A stretch of DNA of 64,000 nucleotides from Actinomycetota bacterium. Lineage in GTDB: Bacteria; Actinomycetota; UBA4738; HRBIN12. Within the stretch, counting starts at the first letter, position 1; each line of letters begins with the position of its first letter. The stretch spans positions 20,855-84,854 of the forward strand of contig DATHTO010000149.1 in NCBI GenBank assembly GCA_035463115.1. The letters run 5' to 3'. Under the pieces are notes generated by a model. That model did no database searches and was not told the origin of the DNA. It was given only the letters and a program-made list of their open reading frames with translations. Made by a program: the position numbers and the translations under genes. Shown here in pieces: positions 572-19,011 of the stretch.

Positions 572-2527
572 ATGCCAGCGTCGGATGACCTGATGGTCCG
601 GGGGCGCGCGGCGCTCGACGGCCACGCCTGGGACGAGGCCTACGCGACCCTGAGCCAGGCCGACGCGGCCGGCGCGCTGACCGGCGAAGGCCTCGAGCTC
701 CTGGCGACCGCGTCCTACTGGACGGCGCGTCCCGACGGGGCGATCGAGGCGTACGAGCGCGCCTACGCCGCGTACCTCGAGGAGGGGGATCGCGCGCGAG
801 CCGCCATGGTCGCCTTCCGGATCGCCGAGCAGCACGGGATGCGGATGTCGATCGCGCAGGCCCAGGGCTGGGCGCAGCGAGCGTTCCGCCTGGCCGAGGA
901 GGATCCGACGTGGCCCGTGCACGGATGGCTGATCTGGGTCCAAGGCCTGATGTTCTGGATCATGGAAGGCGACTTCGTCTCGGCGATCGAGCGCTACGAC
1001 GAGGCGATCGCGTTCGCCGCTGCGAGCGGCGACGAGGATCTCGCCGCGATGAGCCTGCACGACAAGGGGCACGCCCTGTGCCTGTTGGGCAGGGTCGACG
1101 AGGGCATGCCGCTGCTCGACGAGGCGATGGCGGCCGTGGTCGGCGGCGAGCTCGATCCCGCGGCTGCCGGCTACGTCTACTGCGGCATGATCGGCGTCTG
1201 TTCGAAACTCGGCGACTACGGACGCGCGACGGAATGGACCGACGCGACGTTGCGCTGGTGCGATCGTCACTCGGTCCCCGCGTTCCCCGGCGTGTGCCGC
1301 GTGCACCGCGCCGAGCTGAACACGTTCCACGGTCACCTCGACGACGCCGAAGCCGAGGCGCTCGCCGCCTGCGAGGAGCTGCCCCGGTACAACTTCGTGT
1401 CGGGCCTGGGCCCGGCGTACTACGAGATCGGAGAGGTCCGCCGGCGACGGGGCGATCTCGCCGGCTCGGAGGACGCCTACGCCCGAGCCGACGATCACGG
1501 GCGTCCGCCGGAGCCCGGACGGTCGCTCCTGCGTTTCGCCGAGGGGAGGGTGTCGGCCGCTGCAGCCGGCATCGGTCGCGCGCTGCAGGAGCTCGGCGCC
1601 AATCACTGCACCCGCGCCCGGCTCCTCGCGGCACAGGTCGACATCGCGCTCGCCGACGACGACATCGAGACGGCGGCGTCCGCGGCCGACCAGCTCGACG
1701 CCGTGGTCGCCGAACTCGGAACGTCGTCGCTCCGCGCGATGGCCTCCACGGCTCGCGGCGGCGTCCTCGCCGCTCGCGGCGACGCCGAAGGCGCGCTCGC
1801 CTCGCTGCGACGTGCGCGCCGCGAGTGGCAGCAGCTCGATGCGCCGTTGGAGGTCGCGGAGGTTCGCCTGCGGCTCGCGTCGGTCTGCGCCGCGCTCGGC
1901 GACGACGACGCTGCGCGATCCGAGGCGCGCGCCGCGCGGCTCGCCTTCGAGCAGAGCGGCGCCCGTCCAGCGGCGGAACGCGCCCGCCGCGTCCTCCAGC
2001 AGCTCGCGACGGACGACGAGCGTCCGGAGCGCGTCGGTCGCGCGTTCATGTTCACCGACATCGTCGGGTCGACCGATCTGATCGGCGCGATCGGCGACGA
2101 GGCGTGGGAGGACCTCCTCGCGTGGCACGATCGCACCCTCACCGCTGTCTTCGCGGCCCATGGCGGCGACGTCGGGCATCACACCGGCGACGGGTTCTTC
2201 GTCGCGTTCCCCGACGGCGATGCCGCGCTGCGGTGCGCCGTCGAGGTGCAACGCGCCCTCGCGGAGCACCGACGTTCCGCGGGGTTCGCGCTCGCGGTGA
2301 GGATCGGTGTCCACGCCGGCGAGGCGACGGCACGCGGCGACGACTACGGCGGCGCCGAGGTGCACCGGGCGGCGAGGATCGCCGCCCTCGCCGGTGCCGG
2401 CCAGATCTTCGCCAGCCGGTCGACCGTGAACGACGCGACCGGAGGCGTCTCCGTCGACGACGTCGGGGAGGTCGCGCTGAAGGGGTTCACGGAACCGGTC
2501 GCGATCGTCCGCGTGAGCTCCGCGTGA
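572..2527 (+). CDS. TPR-like helical-repeat protein with C-terminal class III adenylate/guanylate cyclase domain
   Basis: GGGAGGG RBS before the ATG. A long Ala/Leu/Asp/Arg helical-repeat N-terminus is followed by the cyclase core FMFTDIVGSTDL...GDGFFVAFPD...RIGVHAGEA...GGAEVHRAARIAALAGAGQI. Confidence 0.85.
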   Translation: MPASDDLMVRGRAALDGHAWDEAYATLSQADAAGALTGEGLELLATASYWTARPDGAIEAYERAYAAYLEEGDRARAAMVAFRIAEQHGMRMSIAQAQGWAQRAFRLAEEDPTWPVHGWLIWVQGLMFWIMEGDFVSAIERYDEAIAFAAASGDEDLAAMSLHDKGHALCLLGRVDEGMPLLDEAMAAVVGGELDPAAAGYVYCGMIGVCSKLGDYGRATEWTDATLRWCDRHSVPAFPGVCRVHRAELNTFHGHLDDAEAEALAACEELPRYNFVSGLGPAYYEIGEVRRRRGDLAGSEDAYARADDHGRPPEPGRSLLRFAEGRVSAAAAGIGRALQELGANHCTRARLLAAQVDIALADDDIETAASAADQLDAVVAELGTSSLRAMASTARGGVLAARGDAEGALASLRRARREWQQLDAPLEVAEVRLRLASVCAALGDDDAARSEARAARLAFEQSGARPAAERARRVLQQLATDDERPERVGRAFMFTDIVGSTDLIGAIGDEAWEDLLAWHDRTLTAVFAAHGGDVGHHTGDGFFVAFPDGDAALRCAVEVQRALAEHRRSAGFALAVRIGVHAGEATARGDDYGGAEVHRAARIAALAGAGQIFASRSTVNDATGGVSVDDVGEVALKGFTEPVAIVRVSSA

Positions 2528-2652
2528 CGTGGCGCGCGATCCGCTGCGGGCGTCAGCCGGACGCGAGCCGTTCGGACGTGGCCGCCGGCAGCGTCGACGA
2601 CGTGTCCGTGCGCCTGGCGGGACGGGCCGTCTCGCCCTAGGCTCCGGCCGAG

Positions 2653-4116
2653 ATGTCCACGCACGGAACCGCGATCGGCACGCCGGAGGATCAGCGCCGC
2701 TACTACGAGACGCTCCTCGAGGCGAGCCCGACCGCGATCGTGGCGTGCGATCCATCGTTCAGGGTCACGTCGTGGAACCCCGCCGCGGAGCGACTGTTCG
2801 GCTGGTCCCGCGACGAGGCGGTCGGAACCAACATCGACGAGCTCGTCGGTCGCCACGACGCGATCCGGGCCGAGGCGGCATCCGTGAACGACCGGGTGAT
2901 GAGCGAGCCCATCGAGCTCGTGACGAGGCGCTCGCGCAAGGACGGCACGCTCGTCGACGTCGCGATCCGAGCCGTGCCCGTCACGATCGACGGTCAGCTC
3001 GTCGGCGCCTTCGCGCTCTACGAGGACGTCGGCGAGCTCGTCCGCCAACGTCGGTTCTTCGAATCCCTCGTGGAGACGAGCCCGACGGCGATCATCATGG
3101 TCGATCGCGGGTTCCGGGTGACCCTGTGGAACCCCGCGGCCGAGCAGCTCTTCGGGTACGGCGCCGAGGAGGCGATGGGTCAGAACCTGGACGACCTCGT
3201 CGCGAACGACCCGGTGATCCACGCCGAGGCGACCGCATGGAGCCACGAGGCGTGGGAGCTGCCGTCGTTCCGGCGGATCGGTCGTCGGACGCGCAAGGAC
3301 GGCTCCCTCATCGACGTCGAGATCCTCGCGATCCGGGAGGAGATGGCGGACGAGCCGAGCAGCTACTACATCCTCTACCACGACGTCACGGAGCTCGAGC
3401 AGACGCGCCGGCAGCTCGAAGCTCGCGTCGACGAACAGATGGCGGAGCTCGTCCGCACCGGCCAGCTCGCACGCTTCCTGCCGCGTCAGGTCGCGGAAGC
3501 GCTGCTGCAGGGGAGCTTGCATGCCGAGGCCGAGTCGTTCGAGCGTCGACGCATCACCGTGCTGTTCGCCGACATGGTCGGCTTCACCGATCTCGCCGAG
3601 AGCCTCGAGCCCGAAGAGCTCGCCGATGTTCTGAACGGCTACCTCCGCGAGATGTCCGCCGCCGTGATCGAGTTCGGCGGCTCCGTCGACAACCTGATCG
3701 GCGACGGCGTGATGGCCGTGTTCGGCGCTCCCAACGACATGTCGGAGGCCGATCAGGCGTGGTCCGCCGTGCGGGCCGCGATCCAGATGCGCGAGCGATG
3801 TCACCGTCTCGCAGCATCGCTGCGGGATCGGGGCATCCCCGCGGACCCCGACATCCGCGTCGGCGTGAACACCGCGCACTGCACGGTCGGCGTGTTCGGC
3901 AGCGACGTGATGCGCGCCTACACCGCCGTCGGCTTCGGCGTGAACGTGGCGGCTCGCCTGCAGACCGCCGCGGAGCCAGGGTCGATCCTCTGTGGCTTCC
4001 GGACCTACGCGCTCGTGAAAGAGAAGGTGCGCGCGGACGAGCGGGGCGCTCTGCCCGTGAAGGGTGCCGTGCGGCCGGTCGAGGCGTACGAGATCGTCGA
4101 TCTCCTCCGCGGATGA
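2653..4116 (+). CDS. PAS-PAS-class III adenylate/guanylate cyclase
   Basis: Two PAS-like modules (SPTAIVACDPSFRVTSWNPAAERLFGWSRDEAVG and SPTAIIMVDRGFRVTLWNPAAEQLFGYGAEEAMG), then the cyclase core ITVLFADMVGFTDL...IGDGVMAVFGAPN...RVGVNTAHCTVGVFGS. Confidence 0.9.
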   Translation: MSTHGTAIGTPEDQRRYYETLLEASPTAIVACDPSFRVTSWNPAAERLFGWSRDEAVGTNIDELVGRHDAIRAEAASVNDRVMSEPIELVTRRSRKDGTLVDVAIRAVPVTIDGQLVGAFALYEDVGELVRQRRFFESLVETSPTAIIMVDRGFRVTLWNPAAEQLFGYGAEEAMGQNLDDLVANDPVIHAEATAWSHEAWELPSFRRIGRRTRKDGSLIDVEILAIREEMADEPSSYYILYHDVTELEQTRRQLEARVDEQMAELVRTGQLARFLPRQVAEALLQGSLHAEAESFERRRITVLFADMVGFTDLAESLEPEELADVLNGYLREMSAAVIEFGGSVDNLIGDGVMAVFGAPNDMSEADQAWSAVRAAIQMRERCHRLAASLRDRGIPADPDIRVGVNTAHCTVGVFGSDVMRAYTAVGFGVNVAARLQTAAEPGSILCGFRTYALVKEKVRADERGALPVKGAVRPVEAYEIVDLLRG

Positions 4117-4485
4117 CGCGCCCACGGGTGCCGGTCGCACTCCCGCCTCCGCGACGGTCGATCGGATGGTGAAAGCCCTCCCGGACCCCTCGTTCCACGG
4201 TCGGGGGGAAACGTCCGAGCACCCGGCGGAAGGCGATCTCGGACTCGTTCGGGGTCCGGGAGAGCTCTCTCGGAGCACGGTACGCTTCGGCGCATCCCCG
4301 CACCATCCGCCGAAGGTCCGACGTTCGCGGGCCGGACGATCGATGTCCTTTCAGCGCGAGTTCGAGGCGATCGTCCCGCCGCGACCGCGGTGAACGCTCC
4401 CTTTTGTCACTCTTCCGGTCCGCCTTCCCCTTGCCTCCTGGTGCGAGGACGACGAGACTCCCGCGGGTCGACGGAAGGAGCAACC

Positions 4486-5412
4486 ATGACCCCCCGCCCC
4501 GTCACGACCATCGCCATCGCCGTCCTCGCCGCCACCGCTCTCCTGCCCGTGGCCTCGGCGACCGCTGCCGACCCGGACGACATGTGCTTCGGGAAGCCGT
4601 TCACGATCGACGCCCGTGGGTCGGGTCAGACGCCGACCGTCGGCACCGAGGGCCCCGACGTCATCGTCGGCGGCACGATCGTCCACGGGCTCGGCGGGAA
4701 CGACAGGATCTGCTCGTTGCGGGGGGCCGACGTGGTCTACGGAGGTCCCGGCGACGACATGATCGACGGAGGGAGCCAGGAGGACTTCATCGAGGGCGGT
4801 CCGGGGGACGACTTCCTGCGCGCGGGCCTCGACACCTGCTACTGCGACCAAGGGTACGGACCCGGCGGCGAGGTGTTGTCGGTGCGCGACGCGACCGGAC
4901 CGACCACCGTCGACCTGATGCACGGTGTCGCCTCGGGTCCGGGGATCGGCCATGACACCTTGTCGGTGAGCCCCGGAACCGGTTGGTGGTACGCCGGCGT
5001 CGAGTTCAGCGAGGTGCACGGCTCGCCCTACGCCGACGTGATCGTCGGCGGGAAGGCGTGGAACGGCAACGCCCTGTTCGGCTTCGGCGGCGACGATCGG
5101 ATCCGTGGCGGCGACCAACGCGACCTGCCGGCGGGCGAGTACACGTACGACCTCCTCGTCGGCGGACGCGGCAACGATCGGCTCCGCGCGCGAGCCGGCG
5201 CGGACCTCCTCGAGGGCAACCGCGGCAAGGACGTCCTGAACGGTGGCGACGGCGGCGACGATCGCGACGTGGTGCGGTACGCCGCGCCGGCGACCGTGAA
5301 CTGGAACACGTGCCGGATCTCTGGTGACGAGGGAACCGACCGGATGGTCGAGATCGAAGCCGGGCCCCGCAAGAGCGACGGCGCGACGGTGATCGGCTCG
5401 CCTCCCTGCTAG
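4486..5412 (+). CDS. Secreted calcium-binding RTX/hemolysin-type repeat protein
   Basis: Internal ATG at 4486 preceded by GGAAGGAG. Signal peptide MTPRPVTTIAIAVLAATALLPVASATA. Repeated GGxGxD-type nonapeptides (GGPGDDMIDGGSQEDFIEGGPGDDFL; GGDDRIRGGDQRD; GGRGNDRLRARAGADLLEGNRGKDVLNGGDGGDD). Confidence 0.8.
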   Translation: MTPRPVTTIAIAVLAATALLPVASATAADPDDMCFGKPFTIDARGSGQTPTVGTEGPDVIVGGTIVHGLGGNDRICSLRGADVVYGGPGDDMIDGGSQEDFIEGGPGDDFLRAGLDTCYCDQGYGPGGEVLSVRDATGPTTVDLMHGVASGPGIGHDTLSVSPGTGWWYAGVEFSEVHGSPYADVIVGGKAWNGNALFGFGGDDRIRGGDQRDLPAGEYTYDLLVGGRGNDRLRARAGADLLEGNRGKDVLNGGDGGDDRDVVRYAAPATVNWNTCRISGDEGTDRMVEIEAGPRKSDGATVIGSPPC

Positions 5413-5493: not shown

Positions 5494-7239
5494 GTGAACC
5501 GTCGCAGGGACACGACCGATCCCGTCGAGATCGTCGAGATCCGCGTCTACCGCGGGCCGAACGTCGAGTTCCCGCGTCCCGCGATCCGGCTCGTCGCGTC
5601 GGTGCCCGGTTGGATGCGCGCGACGGAGGCACGCCTCGCACGGCGCGCCGAGGAGATGGGTCTTCCCGAGAGCGCGCGACCCGGTGGGCCGAGGACCGAA
5701 CAGCGTCGCCGCTTCGCGGTGCGTGCGGCGGTGCACGTCACTCGCGAGATCTCCCGGGCTCGCGCGACGCGCCTCGCCGTCCGCGGCCGCGCCGGCGCGG
5801 AGGCCGACCGGATCGAGGTCGTCTTCCCGTGGCGGCGTCGCGGATCGGCGCAGGCGCTCGCCGAGGAGGTCGTGTCGGTCCTGCGGGACCTGCTCGCGAC
5901 GCGGCGGACGTTCCGACGGCTCGTCGCCGACGCCGCGGACAGGATCGGGGAGGTCGATCCGGGGCCGGAGCCGGATCTTCCCGACCCGTCGGTCCCCGTG
6001 GTCGCCGTCACCGGCACGAACGGCAAGACGTCGACGGTGCGGATCCTCGCGCACGTCCTCCGGCAGGCCGGCATGAGCGTCGCCTACTCCTCGACCGACG
6101 GCGTGTACCACGACGGCGTCCTCGTCGAGGAGGGCGACTACGCCGGCCCGAGCGGCGCCCGCATCGCGCTGTCGCAGCCGGGCGTCGAGGTGGTCGTGCT
6201 CGAGACCGCCCGGGGAGGCATCCTGCTGCAGGGCCTCGGCGTCGCGTCGAACGACGTGTCGGTCGTGACGAACGTCTCGCGCGACCATCTCGGCCTCCAC
6301 GGCATCGACACGCTGGATCAGCTCGCCGACGTGAAGGGAACGATCACCCGCGTGACCCGCCCCGACGGATGGACGGTGCTGAACGCCGACGACCCACGCG
6401 TGCTGAACATGCGTCGCCGATCGCCGGCGCGGCCGTTCCTCTTCTCGCTCGACCATCGACATCCCGCGTTCCCCGACGTGCTGACCGAGCACGGTCGCGC
6501 AGCGACCGTGCTCGACGGGGCCATCGTGCTGCTCGGACCGGGCAGCCGATCCGAGACCGTGATCGCCGTCGAGGACGTTCCGGTGACCCTCGCCGGCGTC
6601 GCGCGCCACGCGGTGCAGAACGTGCTCGGCGTCGCCGCGGCGGCCGTCTCGGTCGGCGTGCCGACCGCGCACGTCGCGGCAGGGCTCCGGACGTTCCTGC
6701 CCGACGCCGAGACGAACCCCGGCCGCGCGAACGTCTACACGCACGACGGGCGCGTCGTCGTCGTCGACTACGCCCACAACGAGGACGGCATCGACTCGTT
6801 GGCCCAGATCCTCGCCGGGTTCCGCCGGCCCGGGAACGACGTCTGGCTCGCGTTCGGAACCGCCGGCGACCGGAGCGACGAGATCCTCCACGCCTTCGCC
6901 TACCGCGCGGGCCGTGGGGCGGACCATCCGATCGTGGCGGAGCTCCACCGGTACCTGCGGGGCCGCGATCCGGAGGACCTGGTCGAGCGCCTCCGCGCCG
7001 GCGCGATCGACGCCGGCGCCACCGAGGTGCCGTCGGAACCCGATGAGGTGCGCGCGCTCGAGCGGATGCTGCGCGGGGCGCGGCGCGGCGACGTGATCGG
7101 CATCACGGCGCTCGCCCAGCGTCCCGAGATCTTCGCGATGCTCGACCGTGAGGGCGCCGTCCGGGCCGATCCCGCGACGGTGAAGCGGCTCGTCCGCGCG
7201 GCGAGACCGACGGTCAGGCGGGCGCGGGCGACGCGGTGA
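5494..7239 (+). CDS. Cyanophycin-synthetase paralogue with CphA N-domain fused directly to a Mur-ligase-type M domain (no ATP-grasp domain)
   Basis: GTG start. The N-terminus VEIVEIRVYRGPNVEFPRPAIRL...IEVVFPWRRRG...LAEEVVSVLRDLL parallels the N domain of the neighbouring CphA. It is followed directly by VVAVTGTNGKTST, VLETARGGILLQGLG and VVVDYAHNEDG (Mur-ligase/M-domain motifs). No KPxxGxxGxGV-type ATP-grasp segment lies between them. Confidence 0.8.
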   Translation: MNRRRDTTDPVEIVEIRVYRGPNVEFPRPAIRLVASVPGWMRATEARLARRAEEMGLPESARPGGPRTEQRRRFAVRAAVHVTREISRARATRLAVRGRAGAEADRIEVVFPWRRRGSAQALAEEVVSVLRDLLATRRTFRRLVADAADRIGEVDPGPEPDLPDPSVPVVAVTGTNGKTSTVRILAHVLRQAGMSVAYSSTDGVYHDGVLVEEGDYAGPSGARIALSQPGVEVVVLETARGGILLQGLGVASNDVSVVTNVSRDHLGLHGIDTLDQLADVKGTITRVTRPDGWTVLNADDPRVLNMRRRSPARPFLFSLDHRHPAFPDVLTEHGRAATVLDGAIVLLGPGSRSETVIAVEDVPVTLAGVARHAVQNVLGVAAAAVSVGVPTAHVAAGLRTFLPDAETNPGRANVYTHDGRVVVVDYAHNEDGIDSLAQILAGFRRPGNDVWLAFGTAGDRSDEILHAFAYRAGRGADHPIVAELHRYLRGRDPEDLVERLRAGAIDAGATEVPSEPDEVRALERMLRGARRGDVIGITALAQRPEIFAMLDREGAVRADPATVKRLVRAARPTVRRARATR

Positions 7240-9985
7240 CGCCGGCGCCCTGCGCCCGGCGTCGTTCGATCTCGTCCCACACCCGCTCGGCGTGGTCGAC
7301 GCACAGCACGACGAGGTCGCCGGGGCGGGCGCGGTCGAGGGCCCGCTTCGCCGCCTCGAGCTCGTCGGTCACGATCTCGACGTGGCCGGTGCGGCCGCCG
7401 GCGGCCCGCGCCTCGTCGACGCCTTCGGCGATCAGCGCCGCGGTCTCACCCCGTGCCCGGCCGCGCGGGTTCTCGTCCTCTCGGACGATCACGTCGTCGA
7501 AGTAGCGAGCGGCGACCCGTCCGAGCTCCCGCATGTCGTCGTCGCGCCGGTCGCCGGCCGACGCCACGACGCCGACGCGAAGATGCGCTGCCCACGAGGG
7601 ATTGCCCGGCATCGCGAAGTCCGGCGAACTCCCGACGAGCCGATCGACGAAGTCGCCGACCGACGCGAGACCCGCGGGGTTGTGGGCGTAGTCGACGATC
7701 ACGCGCACGCCTCGGAGCTCGACCACGTTCAGCCGGCCCGGCGCGTCGAAGAACGACGTCGAGAACGAGCGGAGACCTTGCCGGATGTCGTGGACGTGCG
7801 CGCCGGCGGCGTACGCGGCGCCGGCGGCGGCGAGCACGTTCTGGACGTTCATCCGCGCCTTGCCGTCGAACGTCGCGGGGAACTGATGCGTGTAGCCGAG
7901 CTGGTCCTTCCGCCGGCCGTCGAGGAGGACGACGAGCTCGCCGTTCGGACCGTCCTCGAGGGTCACGGCCTTGCGGCCGCGACGGACCCACCGCGCGATC
8001 AGGTCGTTGTCCTTCTCCATCGAGAAGAGCAGGACCTCTCCCGAGCAGTGCCGCCGCATCGCGAACACGAGGGGATCGTCGGCGTTCAGGACGGCGATGC
8101 CGTCCCGCGGCACGGCCTCGACGACGACGCGCTTGACCGCCGCGAGCTCCTCCATCGTGTCGATCCCGTGGAGCCCGAGGTGGTCGCCCGTCACGTTCAG
8201 GACCGCCGCGACGTCGTTGCGACCGTAGCCGAGCCCCTCGCGCAGGATCCCGCCGCGCGCGACCTCGAACACCGCCAGGTCCACGCGCGGGTTCTGCAGG
8301 ACGCGCTGGGCCGAGCGGGGGCCCGACGCGTCGGCCTTGAGCGTCAGTCGCCCGTCGATGTAGATGCCCTCGGTCGACGTCATGCCGACCTTGTGGCCCT
8401 TCGCCTTCATGATGTGCGTGATCATCCGCACGGTCGTCGTCTTGCCGTTCGAGCCGGTCACGGAGACGATCGGGATCCGCGAGCGCGACCCGGACGGGTA
8501 CAACAGGTCGATCACCGGCTTCGCGACGAACTGCGGCTCGCCCTCGGTCGGATGCGTGTGCATCCGGAACCCCGGCGCGGCGTTCACCTCGACGATCCCG
8601 CCGCCGGTGTCGCGGACCGGCTGGGTGATGTCGGGCGCGATGAAGTCGATCCCGGCGATGTCGAGCCCGACGACGCGAGCGGCCTCCTCGGCGATGTCGA
8701 CGTTGTCGCGATGCGCCTCCCACGTGCGGTCGATCGCGCTTCCGCCGGTGGACATGTTCGCGGTCGACGCGAGCTTCACCGGCACGTCGGCGTCGGGCAC
8801 GTCGTCGAGCTCGAACCCCTGCGAGCGCACGAGCGCCTCGGCCGTCTCGTCGACGCGGATCCGGGTGAGGACCTTCTCGTGCCCGATGCCTCGTCGCGGA
8901 TCGGCGTTCGCGATGTCGACGAGCTCCCGCACCGTGTGCGTGCCGTCGCCGACGACCTGCGCGGGAACCCGTTCGGCGATCGCGGCGATGTGTCCCCCGA
9001 TCACGAGCATGCGGTAGTCGTTGCCCTCGAGCAGCCCTTCGACGACGACCACGTCCGAGCGCCGTGCCTCGCTCGCCGCCCGCTTGTAGCCGGCGCGAAC
9101 CTCGCGGGCGTTCCGGAGGCCGAGGCTCACGCCCCGGCCGTGGTTCCCGTCGAGCGGCTTCGTGACGACCGGGAAGCCGATCCGCTTCGCGGCTTCGACC
9201 GCGGCGTCGGCGGAGCGGACGATCGCGCTGCGTGGGACGGGCAGCCCCGCGGCGGCGAGGAGCTCGTTCGTGAGCTTCTTGTCGCTCGCGATGTCGACCG
9301 CGAGCGCCGACGTCGACGACGCGATCGTGGCGCGGATCCGCTGCTGGTAGCAGCCCTGACCGAGCTGCACCAACGACTGGTCGTTGAGCCGGATGAACGG
9401 GATGTCACGGCTCGCCGCCTCGTCGAGGAGCGCCTGCGTCGACGGTCCGAACGCGCGCCGCTCGGCGAGCACGATCAGCCGCTCGAGCTCCGGGATGAAG
9501 TCGAAGGCGTCGTCGTGCCGCACGAGATCGTTCACCAGGCGGACGGCGAGGTCGCCGGCCGCGAGCCCGACCTGCTCCTCCCAGTAGCCGTAGATCACGT
9601 TGTAGCGGCCCGGTTCGCCGGCGCCGCGGGTCTTGCCGCGGTACACGTGCGAGCCCGACTCGCGCTGGAGCTCGATCGCGATGTGCTCGGCGACGTGACC
9701 CGCCCACGTCCCCTCGTGCAGGCGTTCGATGAAGCCGCCGGCGCGACCGCGCGAGCACGAGTGATCGGCGAGACCCGGCAGCAGATCGAGGAGGCGGTCG
9801 TTGAAGCCCTCGATCCGGTTCGAGGGCCACTCCTCGAGGGAGCCGAGATCGACGAGGAGCCGGATCGCCGGTTCGTAGGAGTAGTAGTTCGGACCGCGGA
9901 AGACCTGCGTGGCGACGATCGTGAGATCCGGCGACGGAGCGCCGGGCGGCTTGCGCTTGCGTGGCCGTCGCTCGGTGGTCGTCAC
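7214..9985 (-). CDS. cphA: Cyanophycin synthetase (N, ATP-grasp G and Mur-ligase-like M domains)
   Basis: Real start taken as the GTG at 9985, which overlaps the cphB stop (GTGA). The upstream 294 codons of the track ORF are Arg-rich and overlap cphB in another frame. Motifs: VFRGPNYYSYEPAIRL (N domain), KPLDGNHGRGV (ATP-grasp), VSVTGSNGKTTT, VIVDYAHNPAG (M domain). 924 codons. Confidence 0.9.
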   Translation of the reverse strand: MTTTERRPRKRKPPGAPSPDLTIVATQVFRGPNYYSYEPAIRLLVDLGSLEEWPSNRIEGFNDRLLDLLPGLADHSCSRGRAGGFIERLHEGTWAGHVAEHIAIELQRESGSHVYRGKTRGAGEPGRYNVIYGYWEEQVGLAAGDLAVRLVNDLVRHDDAFDFIPELERLIVLAERRAFGPSTQALLDEAASRDIPFIRLNDQSLVQLGQGCYQQRIRATIASSTSALAVDIASDKKLTNELLAAAGLPVPRSAIVRSADAAVEAAKRIGFPVVTKPLDGNHGRGVSLGLRNAREVRAGYKRAASEARRSDVVVVEGLLEGNDYRMLVIGGHIAAIAERVPAQVVGDGTHTVRELVDIANADPRRGIGHEKVLTRIRVDETAEALVRSQGFELDDVPDADVPVKLASTANMSTGGSAIDRTWEAHRDNVDIAEEAARVVGLDIAGIDFIAPDITQPVRDTGGGIVEVNAAPGFRMHTHPTEGEPQFVAKPVIDLLYPSGSRSRIPIVSVTGSNGKTTTVRMITHIMKAKGHKVGMTSTEGIYIDGRLTLKADASGPRSAQRVLQNPRVDLAVFEVARGGILREGLGYGRNDVAAVLNVTGDHLGLHGIDTMEELAAVKRVVVEAVPRDGIAVLNADDPLVFAMRRHCSGEVLLFSMEKDNDLIARWVRRGRKAVTLEDGPNGELVVLLDGRRKDQLGYTHQFPATFDGKARMNVQNVLAAAGAAYAAGAHVHDIRQGLRSFSTSFFDAPGRLNVVELRGVRVIVDYAHNPAGLASVGDFVDRLVGSSPDFAMPGNPSWAAHLRVGVVASAGDRRDDDMRELGRVAARYFDDVIVREDENPRGRARGETAALIAEGVDEARAAGGRTGHVEIVTDELEAAKRALDRARPGDLVVLCVDHAERVWDEIERRRAQGAGVTASPAPA

Positions 9986-10848
9986 TCCGAGGCCTCGCGG
10001 AGCTCGTCCGAACGGTCGTCGCCGAGGAGGGTCCGTTTCCGCAGGTCGAACCAGTAGCCAGCCGGGATCGAGTGGAGCACGGCGCCCGACACCATCATCG
10101 GCTTGCGACCGCGCAGCAGGTGGGCATCGGTGCGGACGTTGGATCCGTCGACCACCGTGATCGATCCACGGCCGACGACCTCGACCGAGCGGTCGGCGTA
10201 GACGATCGCAGCGGTGTCCTCGTCGAGCCCGAGGCCGACGAGCGACGGCGACTGCGAGATGGCCGCGAGGAGGCGACCGAGCCGGGTGCGCTGTTCGAAG
10301 TGCTGATCGACGATCACGCCGTTCACGACGCCGAGGCCCGCGGCGATCTGCACGTGGCCGTGCCGCGGCGTCGCGCCGGCATCGCCGAACGCCATCATGT
10401 GTCCGGCGAGCGCGCTCGCGCCCGCCGACGTTCCGGCGATCGCGGCGCCGCGATCGTGCGCGAGCAAGATCGCCGAGCCGAGGCGCGTTCCGGCGACGAC
10501 CGAGGCGAGCCTGAGCTGGTTCCCGCCGGTCAGGAACACGCCGGTCGCTCCGCTGAGGAGCGCCGACAGGTCGGGCGATTCCGCGTCGGCGCGCTCCTGA
10601 GGGTCGACGCCCGTGACCGAACCCACGCCGAGGCCGGTGAAGCTCGCCTCGTACGTCGCGAGCGTTCGCCGGCCGAACATGGACGCCGTGCTCACCACCA
10701 CGATGGACGACTCGCGGCCGCCCGCGAGCTCGACGAACCGCTTGAGGATCCTCTGCGTCTTGGTCCGGTCCTCGGCGCCGCCGATGAGCATCACCGGACC
10801 GGCGCCGCCGACGGGCGGCCGGTGAGCTGCGCGGCGCGAACGAGGCAT
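9982..10848 (-). CDS. cphB: Cyanophycinase (peptidase S51)
   Basis: VMLIGGAEDR..., FLTGGNQLRL and IAGTSAGASALAGHMM (Ser nucleophile context) are typical of CphB/CphE. It sits immediately upstream of cphA and is translationally coupled to it. The exact start (10848 or about 10791) is uncertain. Confidence 0.85.
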   Translation of the reverse strand: MPRSRRAAHRPPVGGAGPVMLIGGAEDRTKTQRILKRFVELAGGRESSIVVVSTASMFGRRTLATYEASFTGLGVGSVTGVDPQERADAESPDLSALLSGATGVFLTGGNQLRLASVVAGTRLGSAILLAHDRGAAIAGTSAGASALAGHMMAFGDAGATPRHGHVQIAAGLGVVNGVIVDQHFEQRTRLGRLLAAISQSPSLVGLGLDEDTAAIVYADRSVEVVGRGSITVVDGSNVRTDAHLLRGRKPMMVSGAVLHSIPAGYWFDLRKRTLLGDDRSDELREASE

Positions 10849-11408: not shown

Positions 11409-11648
11409 GGGTGCGGGAGTACCCCCTCGAGCCCCGCACCATCTCAGCCTTTCGGCCCAACTTCGTCAGCGACTCGGACCTCGCCGAAGGCACGGTTCGG
11501 AGAGCGGCATCCGAGCCGTCCGCTCACGGAGCGGGCGCGAGGTCGTCGCAACGACGCTGGCGGGACCTGAACGGATCTTCACGTCCGCGACGGTTCCCGA
11601 CGCCAGGAACGGGCACCCCCGAACCGAACCCGCCCCATGGAGGAACGG

Positions 11649-12275
11649 ATGCCGTTGATACGGATGATGGATGGCCGGATGGTCCGCATCGAGGGCATCG
11701 CGCCACGAGCGAAGGATGCCGAACGTCGGATCAGGCGCGTGCGCCGGCAGCTCGATGTCGCTTCGGGCGGCCGGACCCGGACGTTTGCGCCGGTGGGCGT
11801 CGGGGGAGGGTCACCCGCGAGGATGCAGGGTCGTCGGGAGGAGACACCCGTGGAACGCGAGCGAACCGAGCTACCGGTCGAGCCCTCGGCGTGCCGCCGG
11901 GCGCGAAGCATCGTGGAGTCGCTCCGCGGCGCGCTCCCGGAGGGGACGTTCGGCGACGTCGTCTTGGTCGCTGACGAGTTGGTCACGCAAGCGCTCGTCG
12001 CCGGTCCGTCTCCGAAGGGTCAGATCACGTTCGAGGTCAGCATCTCCGCCGACGAGATCGCGGTCGCGGCGTCGGATCGTGACGAGGGATACGACGCGCG
12101 GCACGCCTTCAACATCCCCGCTGGGAGTCGCGGTCTCGGGCTGGTGATCGTGAGCGAGGTGGCGGATCGATGGGGCATCGAGCATCACGACGGCAGAACG
12201 AGGGCCTGGGCGTCGTTCGCCGTGCCGCCCCGTGGCGATGACGAGCTCGCCCCCGAGGAGCGCATCGCGGTCTGA
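11649..12275 (+). CDS. HATPase_c / RsbW-like anti-sigma regulatory factor (Ser kinase-like ATPase)
   Basis: C-terminal 150 aa: LPVEPSACRRARSIVESL...VVLVADELVTQALVAG...ITFEVSISADEIAVAASDRDEGY...GLGLVIVSEVADRWGIE...RAWASF. Start is uncertain: the ATG at 11649 has GGAGGA 4 nt upstream, and the ATG at 11823 would remove an odd Arg/Met-rich N-terminal extension. Confidence 0.55.
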   Translation: MPLIRMMDGRMVRIEGIAPRAKDAERRIRRVRRQLDVASGGRTRTFAPVGVGGGSPARMQGRREETPVERERTELPVEPSACRRARSIVESLRGALPEGTFGDVVLVADELVTQALVAGPSPKGQITFEVSISADEIAVAASDRDEGYDARHAFNIPAGSRGLGLVIVSEVADRWGIEHHDGRTRAWASFAVPPRGDDELAPEERIAV

Positions 12276-12980: not shown

Positions 12981-13439
12981 TCAGCCGAGCTGACCTCGCA
13001 CCGCGCCGTCGGGGAAGTCCGCGTTGTGGACGTTGACGTAGAACCTGGCCGGGTTCGCGCGGATCCGCCGGAGGAGTGCCTTCCGAACGTCTCCTTCGCA
13101 GCCGAACGACAGTCCGATGCCGCTCGTGCCCACCTCGGTCGGGTTGTTCAGCGTGATCTTCGGTGGCCCGGAGATGCCGACCGCTCCACGGTGGATGTGC
13201 GCCGCGCTCGCGGGCAGCGTGATGTTCTGCACGCTGATCGCGTAACAGACGCGCTGAGCGCGGACGTTCACCCTCAAGCGCGCGACGCCCGTGCCGTCGC
13301 TGTCACCCGGTCCGGGGACCTCGCTGGCGCCGTCCATCTCGGTGTGGAGGCGTACCGCGCTCGCGGGTGAGGCCGCCGCGATCATCCCGAGCACGAGCGT
13401 GGTGGTCAACGCCGCGCCGACGATCCGTCTCGTTCTCAT
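12981..13439 (-). CDS. Secreted CHRD-domain protein
   Basis: GAGGAGGGAG RBS and a signal peptide ending PASA. GASEVPGPGDSDGTGVARL...AAHIHRGAVG...FYVNVHNADFPDGAVRGQL matches the CHRD pattern. Confidence 0.75.
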   Translation of the reverse strand: MRTRRIVGAALTTTLVLGMIAAASPASAVRLHTEMDGASEVPGPGDSDGTGVARLRVNVRAQRVCYAISVQNITLPASAAHIHRGAVGISGPPKITLNNPTEVGTSGIGLSFGCEGDVRKALLRRIRANPARFYVNVHNADFPDGAVRGQLG

Positions 13440-13508
13440 CGCTCCCTCCTCGTGAGGTGGCGGTTCCTCCTCACCCGGACGAACGTACTCCTCCCGGTGC
13501 GTGACGCA

Positions 13509-14663
13509 TCACCGCAGCTCAGCGCTCCGGCGCTCGATGTCCTCACCCGCGCCCCGGCGTGCAGCCGCCGGAACGGGGGGTTGAAGCTCGACGCGCGCGG
13601 CGAGGTGATCGGCGACCCGCGAGGCATCCCGACCTACGCCGGGCAGGGTGGCCGACGACGCCGCGTAGAGGAACTTGAGCCCGACGAAGTACAGGCCGGG
13701 TTCGTCCGCGACGATGCCGCCACGCTGCCGCGGATAGCCGTCGTCCACGACGGGGAGCTCGATCCAGGAGAACCCCGGCGAGAAGCCGGTGCTCCAGATC
13801 ACGTTCGCCACATCGACGACCTCGCCTCCCTCGAGCACCGGCAGGCCGTCGCGCGCGCCGACGACCCTGCCGGTCCGCTCGATCCCCGCCGCGGCGAGAT
13901 CCTTCGGCTTGGTGCGGACCAGCGGTTCGCCTTTCGACAGCATCATGCGGCGCACCTTGCGCCCGATCGGCGTGCGGACCGTGAAGACGCGGTGGAAGAG
14001 CACCCGCAGCACGATGCGGACGCCGACGCGGCCGACGAGCCCGTCGACCCGGAACGGGATGTGGCCGGTGCTAGGTCCGGCGAGGATCGTCCGGTGCCCG
14101 TTCACCACGTCGAGCGCGATCTCGGCGCCGGAGTTGCCGGCTCCCGCGACGAGCACGGGTCCCGGCCGCAGCTGGCGGGGCCCACGGTAGGCGGCGCTGT
14201 GGAGCTGCGTGATCCGCGGGTCGAGGTCCGACGCGAACGACGGGATCGCCGGCACCTGCCAGCTCGACATCGCGACGACGACGTTGTCGGCCTCGAACCG
14301 TCGGTCCCCGGCGTCGATCACGAAGCGGCCGTCGTCGCGCCGGAGCGACCCGACGCGCAGGCCGTTCATCACGGGAAGCTCGAAGCGCTCCGCGTACCGC
14401 TCGAGGTAGTCCGCCATCTCGTCCTTCGTCGGGAACGAGTGACGCGGGGCCGGGAACGGCATCCCGTCGAGGCCGTCGAGCCACGCGGGCGTGAACAGCC
14501 GCAGGGAGTCCCAGCGGTTCCGCCACGCGTCACCGACGCGATGGTTCGCGTCCACGATCACGAACGGCAGCGCGTGCCGCTTCAGGTGGTACCCGACCGA
14601 CAGCCCCGCCTGGCCTCCGCCGATCACGACCGTTCCGATGCGCTCGACGCCCGGCGTCTCCAT
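13509..14663 (-). CDS. FAD/NAD(P)-binding flavin monooxygenase-like oxidoreductase (CzcO-like)
   Basis: GAGGAGG RBS. VVIGGGQAGLSVGYHL (FAD GxGxxG) and VLVAGAGNSGAEIALD (second dinucleotide fold). Confidence 0.8.
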   Translation of the reverse strand: METPGVERIGTVVIGGGQAGLSVGYHLKRHALPFVIVDANHRVGDAWRNRWDSLRLFTPAWLDGLDGMPFPAPRHSFPTKDEMADYLERYAERFELPVMNGLRVGSLRRDDGRFVIDAGDRRFEADNVVVAMSSWQVPAIPSFASDLDPRITQLHSAAYRGPRQLRPGPVLVAGAGNSGAEIALDVVNGHRTILAGPSTGHIPFRVDGLVGRVGVRIVLRVLFHRVFTVRTPIGRKVRRMMLSKGEPLVRTKPKDLAAAGIERTGRVVGARDGLPVLEGGEVVDVANVIWSTGFSPGFSWIELPVVDDGYPRQRGGIVADEPGLYFVGLKFLYAASSATLPGVGRDASRVADHLAARVELQPPVPAAARRGAGEDIERRSAELR

Positions 14664-14708
14664 CGCTTGACCTCCTCATCAGCGCGGGCTCCCCGCTCAC
14701 GAGTCACG

Positions 14709-16304: not shown

Positions 16305-16315
16305 GTCCGGTCACG

Positions 16316-17824
16316 CTACGCCGTGGACGCACCGCCCGTCACCGCGCGGCTGCTCGTGCGGACCGCGTCCAGCACCCCGTCGATGTCCGCCTCGGTTCCC
16401 ATGTGGTTCATCACGCCGGCGCGCAGGTACGTGCGCCCTCGGAGCGTCGTCGTCGACAGCCATCCCGCTCGGCTGCGCTCGAGCTCGCGCTGCACCCGGT
16501 CCTGGTGCTCGTCGACGGCGCGCTCGCCGAGACCGGCGGCCGGGACGATCCGGAAGCACACGACCGAGAGTTCCGGTGGGTCGACCGCGAGCTCGAGCAT
16601 CGGATCGTCGCGGCAGCGATCGGCGAGGTACGCGGCGAGGTCGTTCGTGCGCTCGACGAGCTCGCCGAACCCGCGGGTCCCGAGGTGTTGCCACGACATC
16701 CAGAGCTTCAAGCCGCGGAACCGACGGGTGCCCTCGAGCGTGAAGTGGTACCAGTCGAGCGGCTCGTCGTGGCTCGACCGCAGGTACTCCGGCGCTCGAT
16801 GGAAGGTGTCGGCGAGATCGTCGCGCCGGCGGACGAGCAGCCCGCCGATGTCGTACGGCTGGAAGAACCACTTGTGCGGATCGAGCGTGACCGAATCGGC
16901 GCGTTCGAGACCCGGCACGCGCGCCGCGTCGCGTTCCGACAGCCGGACCGCTCCGCCGTACGCCGCGTCGACGTGCACCCACAGGCCGAACCGTTCCGCG
17001 ACGTCCGCGACGGCGGGGATCGGATCGACGGCGCCGGTGTTCGTCGCTCCGGCGACCGCGACGATCGCGAACGGTCGCGCGCCGGCCGCGAGATCCTGCT
17101 CGATCGCGCGGACGAGCGCGTCGACGTCGATGTGGAACCGGTCGTCCGTCGGCACCGCTCGGAACGTCGACCCGTCGAAGCCGAGGATGTCGAGCGCCCG
17201 CGTGATCGAGAAGTGCGTCTGGTCGCTGCCGTACAGACGCATCGGACCGAGCCCCGACGCGCGCGGTCGGCCCTCCGACGCGTCGACGTGGTCGCGTGCG
17301 ACCGAGAGCGCCATGAGGTTCGCCATCGCGCCGCCCGACGTCAGCACGCCGAAGCCGTCCTCGGGGTAGCCGACGAGCGAGCGCAGCCACGCGACGACCT
17401 CCTCCTCGACGAACGTCGCCGACGGCGCGCCCTGCCAGATGTCGACGCCCTGGTTCAGCCACGGCGCCCACACGTCGCCGGCGATCGCCATCGGCAGCGG
17501 CGGAGGCGTGAAGTAGGCGAAGGTCCGGGGATGCGCGTGGCTGAACGCGTCGCGTCCGACGCGCTCCCGGACGTCGGCGAGCACCGCGCGCCACGAACGG
17601 CCGTGCTCGGGCGCCGCCGCCGCCTCGCCGCCCGCGCCGAAGAACCGCTCGCGCGACGCTTCGTACGTGAGCCCTTCCGTCGGCACCTCGGCGGCCCGCC
17701 CGTAGAGCCAGTCGAGCGCGTCGGTCCAGACGGCCGCGCCGAGCGTGAGGAGCGCCTCGCGCGACGCCTCGGGATCGCGGTACCGGACGAGGTCGTCGTC
17801 GGCGGGCAGACGCTCCGGCGTCAC
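16316..17824 (-). CDS. PLP-dependent group II amino-acid decarboxylase
   Basis: TSGGAMANLMAL and TLDPHKWFFQPYDIG (PLP-Lys motif). Start taken as the GTG at 17824, which overlaps the M20 stop (GTGA). Confidence 0.85.
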   Translation of the reverse strand: MTPERLPADDDLVRYRDPEASREALLTLGAAVWTDALDWLYGRAAEVPTEGLTYEASRERFFGAGGEAAAAPEHGRSWRAVLADVRERVGRDAFSHAHPRTFAYFTPPPLPMAIAGDVWAPWLNQGVDIWQGAPSATFVEEEVVAWLRSLVGYPEDGFGVLTSGGAMANLMALSVARDHVDASEGRPRASGLGPMRLYGSDQTHFSITRALDILGFDGSTFRAVPTDDRFHIDVDALVRAIEQDLAAGARPFAIVAVAGATNTGAVDPIPAVADVAERFGLWVHVDAAYGGAVRLSERDAARVPGLERADSVTLDPHKWFFQPYDIGGLLVRRRDDLADTFHRAPEYLRSSHDEPLDWYHFTLEGTRRFRGLKLWMSWQHLGTRGFGELVERTNDLAAYLADRCRDDPMLELAVDPPELSVVCFRIVPAAGLGERAVDEHQDRVQRELERSRAGWLSTTTLRGRTYLRAGVMNHMGTEADIDGVLDAVRTSSRAVTGGASTA

Positions 17825-19011
17825 GAGGCTCCTCGGCCGATCGTCGAGATCAGGCCGGCCAGCAGCGCGGTGCGTTCGGCGACGCTGCGCATGTCGATCC
17901 ACTCGCGCTCGCTGTGATCGTCGCCGCCGACCGGCCCGAGGCCGTCGAGCGTCGCGATGCCGATCGCGCTCGTCGCGTTCGCGTCGCTCGCGCCGCCGGT
18001 GGCCGCCTCGTCGAGGGCGAAGCCGAGGTCGGCGGCGATCGCCCGCGCGGTTCGGAACAGCTCCACGGTGCCGGCCGAACGCTCCATCGGCCGCACCTCT
18101 CGGGACTGGTGCACGGTCGACGTCACGCCCTCGGTCGCGTTCGTCGAGCCGATCCGCTCGACCTCCGCTTCGACGGCGGACAAGGCCGACTCGGTGGACG
18201 CCCGCACGTCGATGTCGAGCACCGCTCGCTCGGGCACGACGTTGGATCGCGTTCCCGCCTGCACCACGCCGACGTTCACGGTGGTGCCGTCGGGTCCGTC
18301 GTGCAGCGCGTGGAGCGCCTCGATCTTGCGCGCCGCCTCGACGACGGCGCTGCGTCCGCGTTCGGGCTCGACGCCGGCATGGGCGGCGCGACCGGTGATC
18401 TCGATCCGCACCGTCGTCACGCCTTTGCGTGAGGAGACGACGTCGCCGTTCTCGCGCGCGGCCTCGAGGACGAGCACGGCGTCGGCCCGGCGGGCCTCGT
18501 CGAGGATGCGTGGGCGTGACGCCGGCGAGCCACGCTCCTCGTCGGGGTTGCAGACGAACACGAGCTCGCCGAACGCTTCGTCCCCGACGTCACGCAGGAC
18601 GCCGGCCGCGTGGAGGCCGACGAGGAGGCCACCCTTCATGTCGCAGACGCCCGGACCGTAGCCGCGTCCGTCCTCGACGCGGAACGGCCGTGCCGCGGCC
18701 GTTCCGTCGGGGAAGACGGTGTCGAGGTGGCCGAGCAGCAGGACGCGCCGACCACCTGCACCCCGCAGACGTGCGATCAGGATGTCGCCCCAGCGTCGAT
18801 CGTCGACCCGGTCGGTCGCATGCCGCTCCACGGTCCAGCCGTCGGCGGCGAGCAGCTCGCCGACGCGGTCAGCCATGCGGTTCACGCCGTCGGGGGAGTC
18901 CGTTCCGGAGTCGATCGCGACGAGCTCGGCGAGGACGCTCGCGAACGCCGCCTCGCGCGCACGCGCCGCCTCGAGCATCCGGGCGCTCGTCGGAGCCGGG
19001 GTCGTCATCAC
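17821..19011 (-). CDS. M20 family metallopeptidase (carboxypeptidase G2-like)
   Basis: LLLGHLDTVFP, GPGVCDMKGG, NPDEERGS, GRAAHAG. Confidence 0.85.
   Translation of the reverse strand: MMTTPAPTSARMLEAARAREAAFASVLAELVAIDSGTDSPDGVNRMADRVGELLAADGWTVERHATDRVDDRRWGDILIARLRGAGGRRVLLLGHLDTVFPDGTAAARPFRVEDGRGYGPGVCDMKGGLLVGLHAAGVLRDVGDEAFGELVFVCNPDEERGSPASRPRILDEARRADAVLVLEAARENGDVVSSRKGVTTVRIEITGRAAHAGVEPERGRSAVVEAARKIEALHALHDGPDGTTVNVGVVQAGTRSNVVPERAVLDIDVRASTESALSAVEAEVERIGSTNATEGVTSTVHQSREVRPMERSAGTVELFRTARAIAADLGFALDEAATGGASDANATSAIGIATLDGLGPVGGDDHSEREWIDMRSVAERTALLAGLISTIGRGAS

Follow-up and report, generated by a model that had tools for sequence, protein, structure and literature searches.

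A cyanophycin synthetase-like protein with N and M domains and no ATP-grasp domain is encoded beside cphA in Actinomycetota

Cyanophycin is a nitrogen-storage polymer whose biosynthesis is now described with two enzyme types: CphA1, in which an N domain, an ATP-grasp (G) domain, and a Mur ligase-type M domain are joined (N-G-M), and CphA2, which has N and G domains and a vestigial M. A third type would alter this picture. We analyzed a 64,000-nucleotide stretch of DNA from an Actinomycetota bacterium (contig DATHTO010000149.1 of assembly GCA_035463115.1, positions 20,855 to 84,854; G+C content ~72%), referred to here as the window, in which a gene for a cyanophycin synthetase-like protein of 581 aa lacking an ATP-grasp domain (5494..7239, + strand) adjoins a complete cphA gene. 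What would a protein with only N and M domains, hereafter the N-M protein, do beside an enzyme that has both? A first-pass annotation, made from the sequence alone, had proposed the N-M architecture and knew of no description of it. We find it to be a third architecture within the known cyanophycin synthetase family, apparently undescribed. On balance, we lean toward the N-M protein being a side-chain ligase that stands alone, depends on ATP, and works in trans on an aspartate-backbone polymer, with a specificity unlike that of the CphA1 M domain.

The open reading frame at 5494-7239 begins with GTG, and its G+C content at third codon positions (GC3) of 0.92 is the codon-position signature of a real gene, a signature absent from the alternative reading frames that overlap it. 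The product is 100% identical to NCBI entry HSL12330.1, labeled 'Mur ligase family protein' and derived from an Actinomycetota metagenome-assembled genome (MAG). Pfam places Mur_ligase_M at residues 172-384 (73.2 bits, above the gathering cutoff of 24) and Mur_ligase_C at 410-537 (49.4 bits, above the cutoff of 28.4), and no ATP-grasp family is found at E≤0.1. The NCBIfam cyanophycin synthetase model TIGR02068 aligns with residues 165-538 only, over model positions 477-847 (E 8e-105), meaning that it matches the M domain alone; the score of 351.7 bits is below the curated cutoff of 850, so the protein does not qualify as a full-length CphA1. The M domain is 39% identical to that of the neighboring CphA1 by BLASTP (E 4e-64), a match that had been noticed from the letters alone, and among solved structures its closest sequence matches are CphA1 M domains (E 7e-89), with MurE well behind.

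Within the M domain, the M-core (Mur_ligase_M; ~residues 168-404; 5995..6705, +; PF08245 E 3.6e-20) carries the P-loop GTNGKT with K178 and T179, followed by T201, E237, D264-H265, and K281. The M-lid (Mur_ligase_C, residues 410-537; PF02875 E 1e-12), which keeps R411 and H428, together with a C-terminal helical tail that is conserved in the alignment, occupies 6706..7236 (+). The M domain is thus complete. In front of it, a Pro/Asp-rich linker, EVDPGPEPDLPDPSV (~residues 153-167; 5950..5994, +), runs from the N domain straight into M. The linker is read from the translation, and the structural model has no secondary structure at 153-168; these ~15 residues sit where CphA1 carries its G domain of ~330 aa. 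The full-length model (predicted local distance difference test, pLDDT, 90) superposes along whole CphA1 chains with the G domain skipped, giving query-normalized template modeling (TM) scores of 0.77-0.80. These values exceed what M alone could contribute, because M makes up 69% of the residues. In the model, therefore, N and M are positioned relative to each other much as in CphA1.

A cryptic ATP-grasp domain was ruled out by Pfam, by NCBIfam, by the model, and by the available length: the spacing from the GPN loop of the N domain to the P-loop is 117-193 aa across 152 family members, leaving no room for such a domain in any of them. The peptide motifs quoted in the first-pass annotation are all present in the N-M and CphA translations, and the architecture that it read from them, N plus M without ATP-grasp, is borne out by Pfam, the partial TIGR02068 match, hhalign, and the structural models. 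Its impression of novelty stands as well, within the searchable literature. A full-text search returned only papers on CphA1 and CphA2 and phylogenies of the Mur family, with no N-M form, most subscription papers lying outside its coverage, and a bioinformatic survey of cyanophycin genes makes no mention of one.

The N domain (~residues 10-152; 5521..5949, +) was the harder case. It contains a GPN loop (G21-P22-N23), an Arg-rich helix at 69-89, and a strand ending in FPWRRRG, and BLASTP aligns it with the N domain of the neighboring CphA at 25% identity over 142 aa (E 9e-6). PF18921, the Pfam model of the cyanophycin synthase-like N-terminal domain, matches neither the window protein at E≤0.1 nor any of 23 family members at E≤10. 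A hidden Markov model (HMM) of the family's N domain found 334 proteins among 1.8 billion representative proteins, and the best 150 listed included no CphA1 of ~900 aa. Profile-profile alignment with hhalign, however, connects the family N domain to actinobacterial CphA1 N domains with 81% probability (E 1.2e-5, 126 colinear columns). When the domain is modeled alone with AlphaFold (pLDDT 93), its top 15 PDB matches in Foldseek consist entirely of CphA1 and CphA2 N domains (E 8e-5 to 5e-2, TM 0.5-0.64), and the next matches fall to a probability of ~0.1. The predicted structure settles the point: the relationship to CphA N is real, if remote. An N terminus unrelated to CphA_N was thus ruled out by hhalign and Foldseek, although PF18921 and the plain family HMM miss the link, and the mirroring of the CphA N domain suggested earlier holds as a distant likeness. 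Neither Pfam nor the structure search with the N domain revealed the UDP-binding N-terminal domain of Mur ligases; the CphA fold is found in its place.

The N domain of CphA1 serves as a polymer tether, and in most of these enzymes it also has a zinc endopeptidase site, Cx19HxxEH, which generates primers; the motif is present in 83% of CphA1s (PMC9262961). In the N-M protein, A61, R77, and V80 take the place of C, H, and E in the hhalign alignment and only H81 is kept, so the N-M protein is not a peptidase. The partner CphA1 retains C77/H97/E100/H101, which are invariant in the alignment of partner N domains. Features associated with polymer binding are kept: in the CphA1 of Synechocystis UTEX2470 (SuCphA1, whose numbering we use), the GPN loop is a hydrophobic loop that packs on M and touches the polymer backbone, and R70 is a polymer contact (PMC9262961). 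R71 of the N-M protein is the equivalent of R70, and an R-G-R turn aligns around G99-R100. The charge of the N domain differs as well. About 14 arginines are invariant or nearly so, versus three conserved acidic residues, and the mean net charge of the N domain is +10.7 (sd 3.1) versus -3.7 for CphA1 N domains from the same genomes; in a wider N-M set the mean is +8.2. The loss of the zinc motif and the cationic N domain, like the recurrent M20 hydrolase described below, go beyond what the first-pass annotation had noted.

Is the M domain capable of catalysis? Residues K178, T179, T201, E237, D264, H265, K281, R411, and H428 are invariant in alignments of 43 and of 80 N-M sequences, whereas degenerate catalytic residues would have indicated decay. 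K281 falls at the carbamylated-lysine position of Mur ligases such as MurD and MurE. By alignment, the other residues are the counterparts of published functional residues, namely K499/T500 (P-loop), T522 and E558 (Mg), and R731 and H748 (lid) of TeCphA1 (PMC9427784), and D585/H586 of SuCphA1 (PMC9262961). We also compared the M domains of 80 N-M proteins with those of 60 CphA1s (56 actinobacterial partners and four solved enzymes), and found that 63 of 96 CphA1-invariant columns are kept. As judged by these alignments, the machinery for ATP-dependent carboxylate activation is intact.

This conservation bears on whether the N-M protein might be a non-catalytic regulator or scaffold bound to CphA1 or to cyanophycin granules. 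CphA1 is known to form oligomers (PMC9427784), and in the partner CphA1 the acidic N and G domains could offer a docking surface to a cationic N domain. Nevertheless, the 80 sequences show no variation at any residue that binds ATP, Mg, or phosphate, which is unexpected for a purely structural protein, and the SuCphA1 tetramerization residue W672 is apparently not conserved, as read by eye from the printed alignment. We regard a purely structural role as very improbable.

Substrate recognition is a different matter. Eight charged residues (R566, E607, R652, R715, R767, R778, D781, and D801 in SuCphA1) are invariant in 59-60 of the 60 CphA1s, and each is kept in at most six of the 80 N-M proteins, being replaced or deleted in the rest. 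R566 becomes L, R652 becomes A or S, R715 becomes V, I, or A, R778 becomes T, S, or D, and D781 becomes I, V, or L; R767 is deleted, D801 is variable, and E607 is R or K in 63 of the 80. F793 is likewise replaced, by A. The N-M family has invariants of its own, Y216 (W in one subclade), G221, R302, Y487, and L488, and its block AELxRYLRGRD (483-492) stands for the CphA1 block [RK]EDDDxRGR, which holds D801. The CphA1 block is taken here as the equivalent of DNPR, the amino-acid-binding motif of MurE. Because the eight charged residues are replaced and D801 lies in the DNPR-equivalent block, we infer that the substrate pocket is not CphA1-like: the catalytic engine seems to have been kept and substrate recognition rebuilt. 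The first-pass annotation had held that the protein keeps the Arg-adding site, and that claim does not survive the comparison. The alternatives that it offered, a different amino acid or an undecorated Asp backbone, appear to fit these sequences better than a second Arg-adding site.

The same replacements speak to the simplest functional proposal, namely that the N-M protein is a helper doing the job of the CphA1 M domain, adding Arg onto the terminal Asp of (beta-Asp-Arg)n-Asp and so letting a rate-limiting step run at higher capacity. In favor of a redundant helper are the tight linkage of the gene to cphA, the overall acidity of the M domain, and the retention of the catalytic residues together with the RGR stretch of the amino-acid-binding block. 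However, the eight CphA1-invariant residues are gone from nearly all N-M proteins, and the change at E607, which touches bound cyanophycin in CphA1 (PMC9262961), is a reversal of charge. The M domains of partner CphA1s are intact, leaving no obvious need for a duplicate, and the family forms a long-established clade of its own, not one of recent duplication. We consider redundancy unlikely.

How old and how widespread is the family? N-domain relatives occur in 479 of ~186,000 species genomes, and the best 80 of these are all uncultured MAGs of Actinomycetota, Dormiibacterota, or 'Chloroflexi'. A protein search gave more than 120 clusters at 59-86% identity, all of ~560-590 aa and with Mur_M and Mur_C only, named 'cyanophycin synthetase' by IMG and 'Mur ligase family protein' by PGAP. 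Divergent representatives (~40-48% identity) retain the N-M architecture. A scan of JGI metagenomes for close relatives of the divergent P0322 returned 80 further family loci and none above ~49% identity to it. The 43-sequence alignment has 114 invariant positions, and the family is under purifying selection.

In a neighbor-joining tree, midpoint-rooted and built without a MurE/MurF outgroup, the N-M M domains form a clade apart from CphA1 M domains. They are 35-37% identical to the M domains of actinobacterial, cyanobacterial, and gammaproteobacterial CphA1s, which share 40-46% with one another. These relationships point to an old lineage, either a sister or a fast-evolving offshoot, and not to a recent deletion of the adjacent cphA. 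A decaying deletion derivative of a duplicated cphA would account for the adjacency of the two genes and their 39% identity in M, but intact reading frames of ~560-590 aa in hundreds of species, invariant catalytic residues, a GC3 of 0.92, and equal distance from all CphA1 clades reduce its likelihood to almost nothing. We therefore rejected decay or recent deletion on the grounds of the large family, its invariant catalytic residues, and its separate clade equidistant from three CphA1 groups. N-M may be ancient as a module and stand as the sister group of all CphA1 M domains, in which case it would have a bearing on how a synthetase of three domains arose.

Some members depart from the common form. 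Representative P0252 (745 aa) has an extra C-terminal TPR_5 domain (residues 622-740), and L068:9959-12205 contains a 737-aa reading frame that runs into cphA and is either genuine or the result of a missed stop. One subclade (L138, L139, L143, L149-L151, L153-L156, L158, L161, L164, and L168) has a shorter N domain, with 117 aa from GPN to P-loop, lacks the Arg-rich EQRRRF...H helix, and has W for Y216 in the GDY/WxG motif; in this subclade an M20 hydrolase gene always lies divergently upstream.

The neighboring genes offer a further line of evidence. In the window, cphA (7214..9985, -) encodes a full-length CphA1 of 923 aa with an intact Cx19HxxEH, scoring 1140 bits with TIGR02068 (cutoff 850), matching PF18921, six ATP-grasp families, and both Mur domains in Pfam, and aligning with CphA1 in the PDB at E 2e-235. 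The solved CphA1s lack a ~15-residue insertion (SSPDFAMPGNPSWAAH) found in its M-lid at residues ~783-800, a site where insertions vary among actinobacterial partner CphA1s. Directly upstream of cphA and overlapping its start by 4 bp is cphB (9982..10848, -), for a cyanophycinase (Peptidase_S51) of 288 aa (PF03575 E 3.7e-20); cphA and cphB form an operon. The N-M gene and cphA converge, and their 3' ends overlap by 26 bp (7214-7239), as had been read from the coordinates.

To place this arrangement in context, we drew 164 non-redundant loci from genome and metagenome collections, of which 84 have at least 5 kb of downstream DNA. In 78 of the 84 (93%), cphA lies convergently downstream of the N-M gene, usually followed by cphB, which extends beyond the window the linkage to cphA/cphB proposed for it. 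The stop codons of N-M and cphA abut or overlap in many loci. Even the member at L084 (~45% identity) abuts cphA, without cphB there. A further conserved gene between the two was ruled out: where N-M and cphA are 1-7 kb apart, the inserted genes are lineage-specific, among them LigD Prim-Pol and CBS-citrate synthase (precomputed Pfam labels) and trehalose-6-P-synthase-like and other genes named by eye from sequence. The upstream neighbors, an RTX-like gene in the window and fasciclin or Tricorn-like genes elsewhere, show no conservation across related loci. We also considered whether N-M complements a partner CphA1 with a defective M domain, and rejected this, as in the partners every CphA1-invariant M column is retained, along with the Zn motif of the N domain.

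Could the position beside cphA be a frozen accident, with the protein a Mur-type ligase for some other acceptor, such as the cell wall, a polyanion, or a protein? The genes are convergent and not one operon, a few loci have no cphA nearby, and a cationic N domain could bind any polyanion. Yet cphA synteny persists to ~45% identity and across phyla, one lineage has rearranged into a same-strand array of cphA, N-M, and M20, the closest relatives of both domains occur only in CphA1 and CphA2, and the UDP-binding Mur N-terminal domain was not found. A role unrelated to cyanophycin is, in our judgment, highly unlikely.

The second recurrent neighbor is a hydrolase. A carboxypeptidase G2 (CPG2)-like M20 enzyme of 396 aa is encoded in the window at 17821..19011 (-), 10.8 kb from the N-M stop. 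It scores 297 bits with NF004788, below the glutamate carboxypeptidase cutoff of 349, and in the PDB it matches CPG2 (1cg2) over its full length at E 1e-49 and poly(aspartic acid) hydrolase (7ljh) at E 2.5e-15. Orthologs, 42-47% identical, stand beside the N-M gene in 21 other loci. At least four arrangements occur: in 14 metagenome loci the M20 gene directly adjoins N-M on its upstream side in divergent orientation, in L044 and L070 it lies upstream on the same strand, and in four loci it is 0.8-3 kb upstream. Two of the loci without a nearby downstream cphA, L045 and L063, still have the M20 gene 2.6-3 kb upstream. In the most compact case (L087:1-3237, from Logan SRR21824722), the cphA 3' end (1-525), N-M (539-2269), and M20 (2266-3237) lie on one strand in an operon-like array, with 13 bp between the first two and an overlap of 4 bp between the last two; the N domain of this N-M protein is strongly anionic (-14), unlike the main family.

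The M20 hydrolase may be a fourth member of the cph gene set and a new cyanophycin-related hydrolase. By analogy with the discovery of the M14 enzyme CphZ, it may also simply be another beta-Asp-X dipeptidase; about a quarter of genomes with cphA reportedly lack the known dipeptidases IadA and IaaA (PMC9974463).

Such a partner raises the possibility that the N-M protein joins small molecules, free amino acids or dipeptides such as the beta-Asp-X products of CphB and M20, with the N domain serving only to stabilize M. The loss of the residues by which CphA1 recognizes polymer would agree with this, as would the recurrence, in at least four arrangements, of a CPG2-like enzyme from a class that cleaves N-acyl amino acids. 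The N domain of CphA2 has been described as non-catalytic yet important for stability (PMC10273328). The N-M family, however, keeps ~14 invariant or near-invariant arginines, R71, and the GPN loop, and conservation of the N-domain surface points to ligand binding over mere stabilization. A small-molecule ligase thus seems distinctly unlikely to us.

A bolder idea, and one that we think fairly unlikely, makes N-M and M20 a load/unload pair working on a persistent poly-aspartate backbone. M20 would remove amino acids from the side chains of the polymer, or cleave beta-Asp-X, and N-M would load an amino acid back onto the backbone, then bare and anionic, at the cost of one ATP per residue, a task that the cationic N domain would suit. 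Cyanophycin would thus be 'rechargeable'; should the residue added be something other than arginine, the product would be a branched polymer of different chemistry.

We return to the reading that we favor, a side-chain ligase that works in trans with its own specificity. In CphA1, polymer at the M site sits between N and the M-core (PMC9427784). In the N-M protein, the non-hydrolytic, strongly cationic N domain and the groove between N and M would hold the aspartate-backbone polymer made by the neighboring CphA1. Using ATP, the M domain would phosphorylate the free side-chain (beta) carboxylate of an Asp residue and then transfer an amine nucleophile, an amino acid, onto the activated carboxylate to form an isopeptide bond. 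The enzyme would be unable to extend the polymer backbone. Three features speak against a plain duplicate of the Arg-adding step, namely the completeness of the partner CphA1, the replacement of the recognition residues specific to CphA1, and the cationic tether; the same features suggest a more anionic acceptor, a different incoming residue, or both. Most likely, then, the N-M protein acts on under-decorated, more anionic stretches or chain ends of a cyanophycin-type polymer, installs a residue other than arginine, or does both.

Several observations weigh against this proposal. We know of no report that known CphA1 enzymes release undecorated poly-Asp. Six of the 84 loci (L041, L045, L063, L076, L078, and L080) have no cphA within ~8.7 kb downstream, and the convergent orientation means that N-M and cphA are not co-transcribed. 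The cationic surface is not universal: in the distant clades L087 and L157 the N domain is anionic. The M domain as a whole is acidic, with a mean net charge of -9.0 versus +2.2 for partner CphA1 M domains; such a domain would suit a basic substrate (Arg or Lys), which weakens the argument that the added residue is not arginine. Finally, the roles of the replaced residues are deduced from conservation, from one published contact (E607), and from analogy with the MurE DNPR motif.

If the proposal is correct, the near-constant position of N-M beside a complete CphA1 implies an unrecognized polymer step in uncultured soil Actinomycetota and Dormiibacterota, whether re-decoration, capping, editing, or side-chain diversification. 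A stand-alone poly-aspartate side-chain ligase would be of practical use in producing tailored materials, whether cyanophycin-like or poly-Asp, and the recurring M20 enzyme may be a fourth kind of cyanophycin-related hydrolase.

The rest of the neighborhood in the window is mixed. Upstream of the cluster are tandem genes for class III adenylate/guanylate cyclases (572-2527 and 2653-4116, both +), one with TPR repeats and the other with two PAS domains. Immediately upstream of the N-M gene, 4390-5412 (+) encodes a protein with RTX calcium-binding nonapeptide repeats, probably secreted to judge by eye from a hydrophobic N-terminal stretch. Between cphB and the M20 gene lie a HATPase_c_2 gene (anti-sigma-factor-like kinase; 11637-12275, +) and a CHRD-domain gene (12981-13439, -), with no evident link to the cph cluster, and 13452-17369 (+) is a 1305-aa open reading frame with a coding-like GC3 of 0.81 and no Pfam family at E≤0.001. 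Scans for promoter and terminator consensus sequences near the N-M gene gave nothing and are uninformative at 72% GC in an actinobacterium.

How does this gene set compare with known systems? The window M20 hydrolase resembles CPG2 over its full length and, more weakly, the PahZ-type poly(Asp) hydrolases; to our knowledge, the known cyanophycin dipeptidases (IadA, IaaA, and CphZ) include no M20 enzyme. The N-M protein shares with MurE, MurF, and other Mur ligases (PF08245 and PF02875) the two-domain core of an ATP-dependent ligase, with P-loop, DH motif, conserved lysine, and lid Arg and His. Its best MurE-model score is only 111 bits, against a cutoff of 373, and covers the core alone; the UDP-binding N-terminal domain is missing, and the DNPR-equivalent block reads RYLRGR. 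MurT (of MurT/GatD) and CapB/PgsB are likewise stand-alone enzymes of the Mur fold; they act on peptides or polymers, where they activate an acidic residue at its side-chain or gamma carboxylate. The sequence similarity of N-M to them is weak (MurT E 4e-5), its N-terminal domain is another one, and it lacks the DUF1727 domain, the glutaminase partner, and the membrane partners.

CphA1 (TIGR02068; PDB 7LG5, 7WAC, 7LGM, and 7LGN) is the nearest relative. The N-M model has its N-domain fold and its arrangement of N and M, the M domains are 35-39% identical with all catalytic residues in common, and the N-M gene is linked to cphB and to a bona fide cphA. The N-M protein differs in lacking the G domain, and with it backbone extension; in having a cationic N domain without Cx19HxxEH that PF18921 misses; and in the eight replaced charges of its M domain. 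CphA2 (N-G-truncated M; PDB 7TA5 and 8FXH), which polymerizes beta-Asp-Arg, is likewise a reduced relative of CphA1 with a non-hydrolytic N domain and a single catalytic domain, and it too accompanies CphA1. The two are mirror images: CphA2 has an active G and an inactive, truncated M, whereas the N-M protein has no G and a complete M, lid included.

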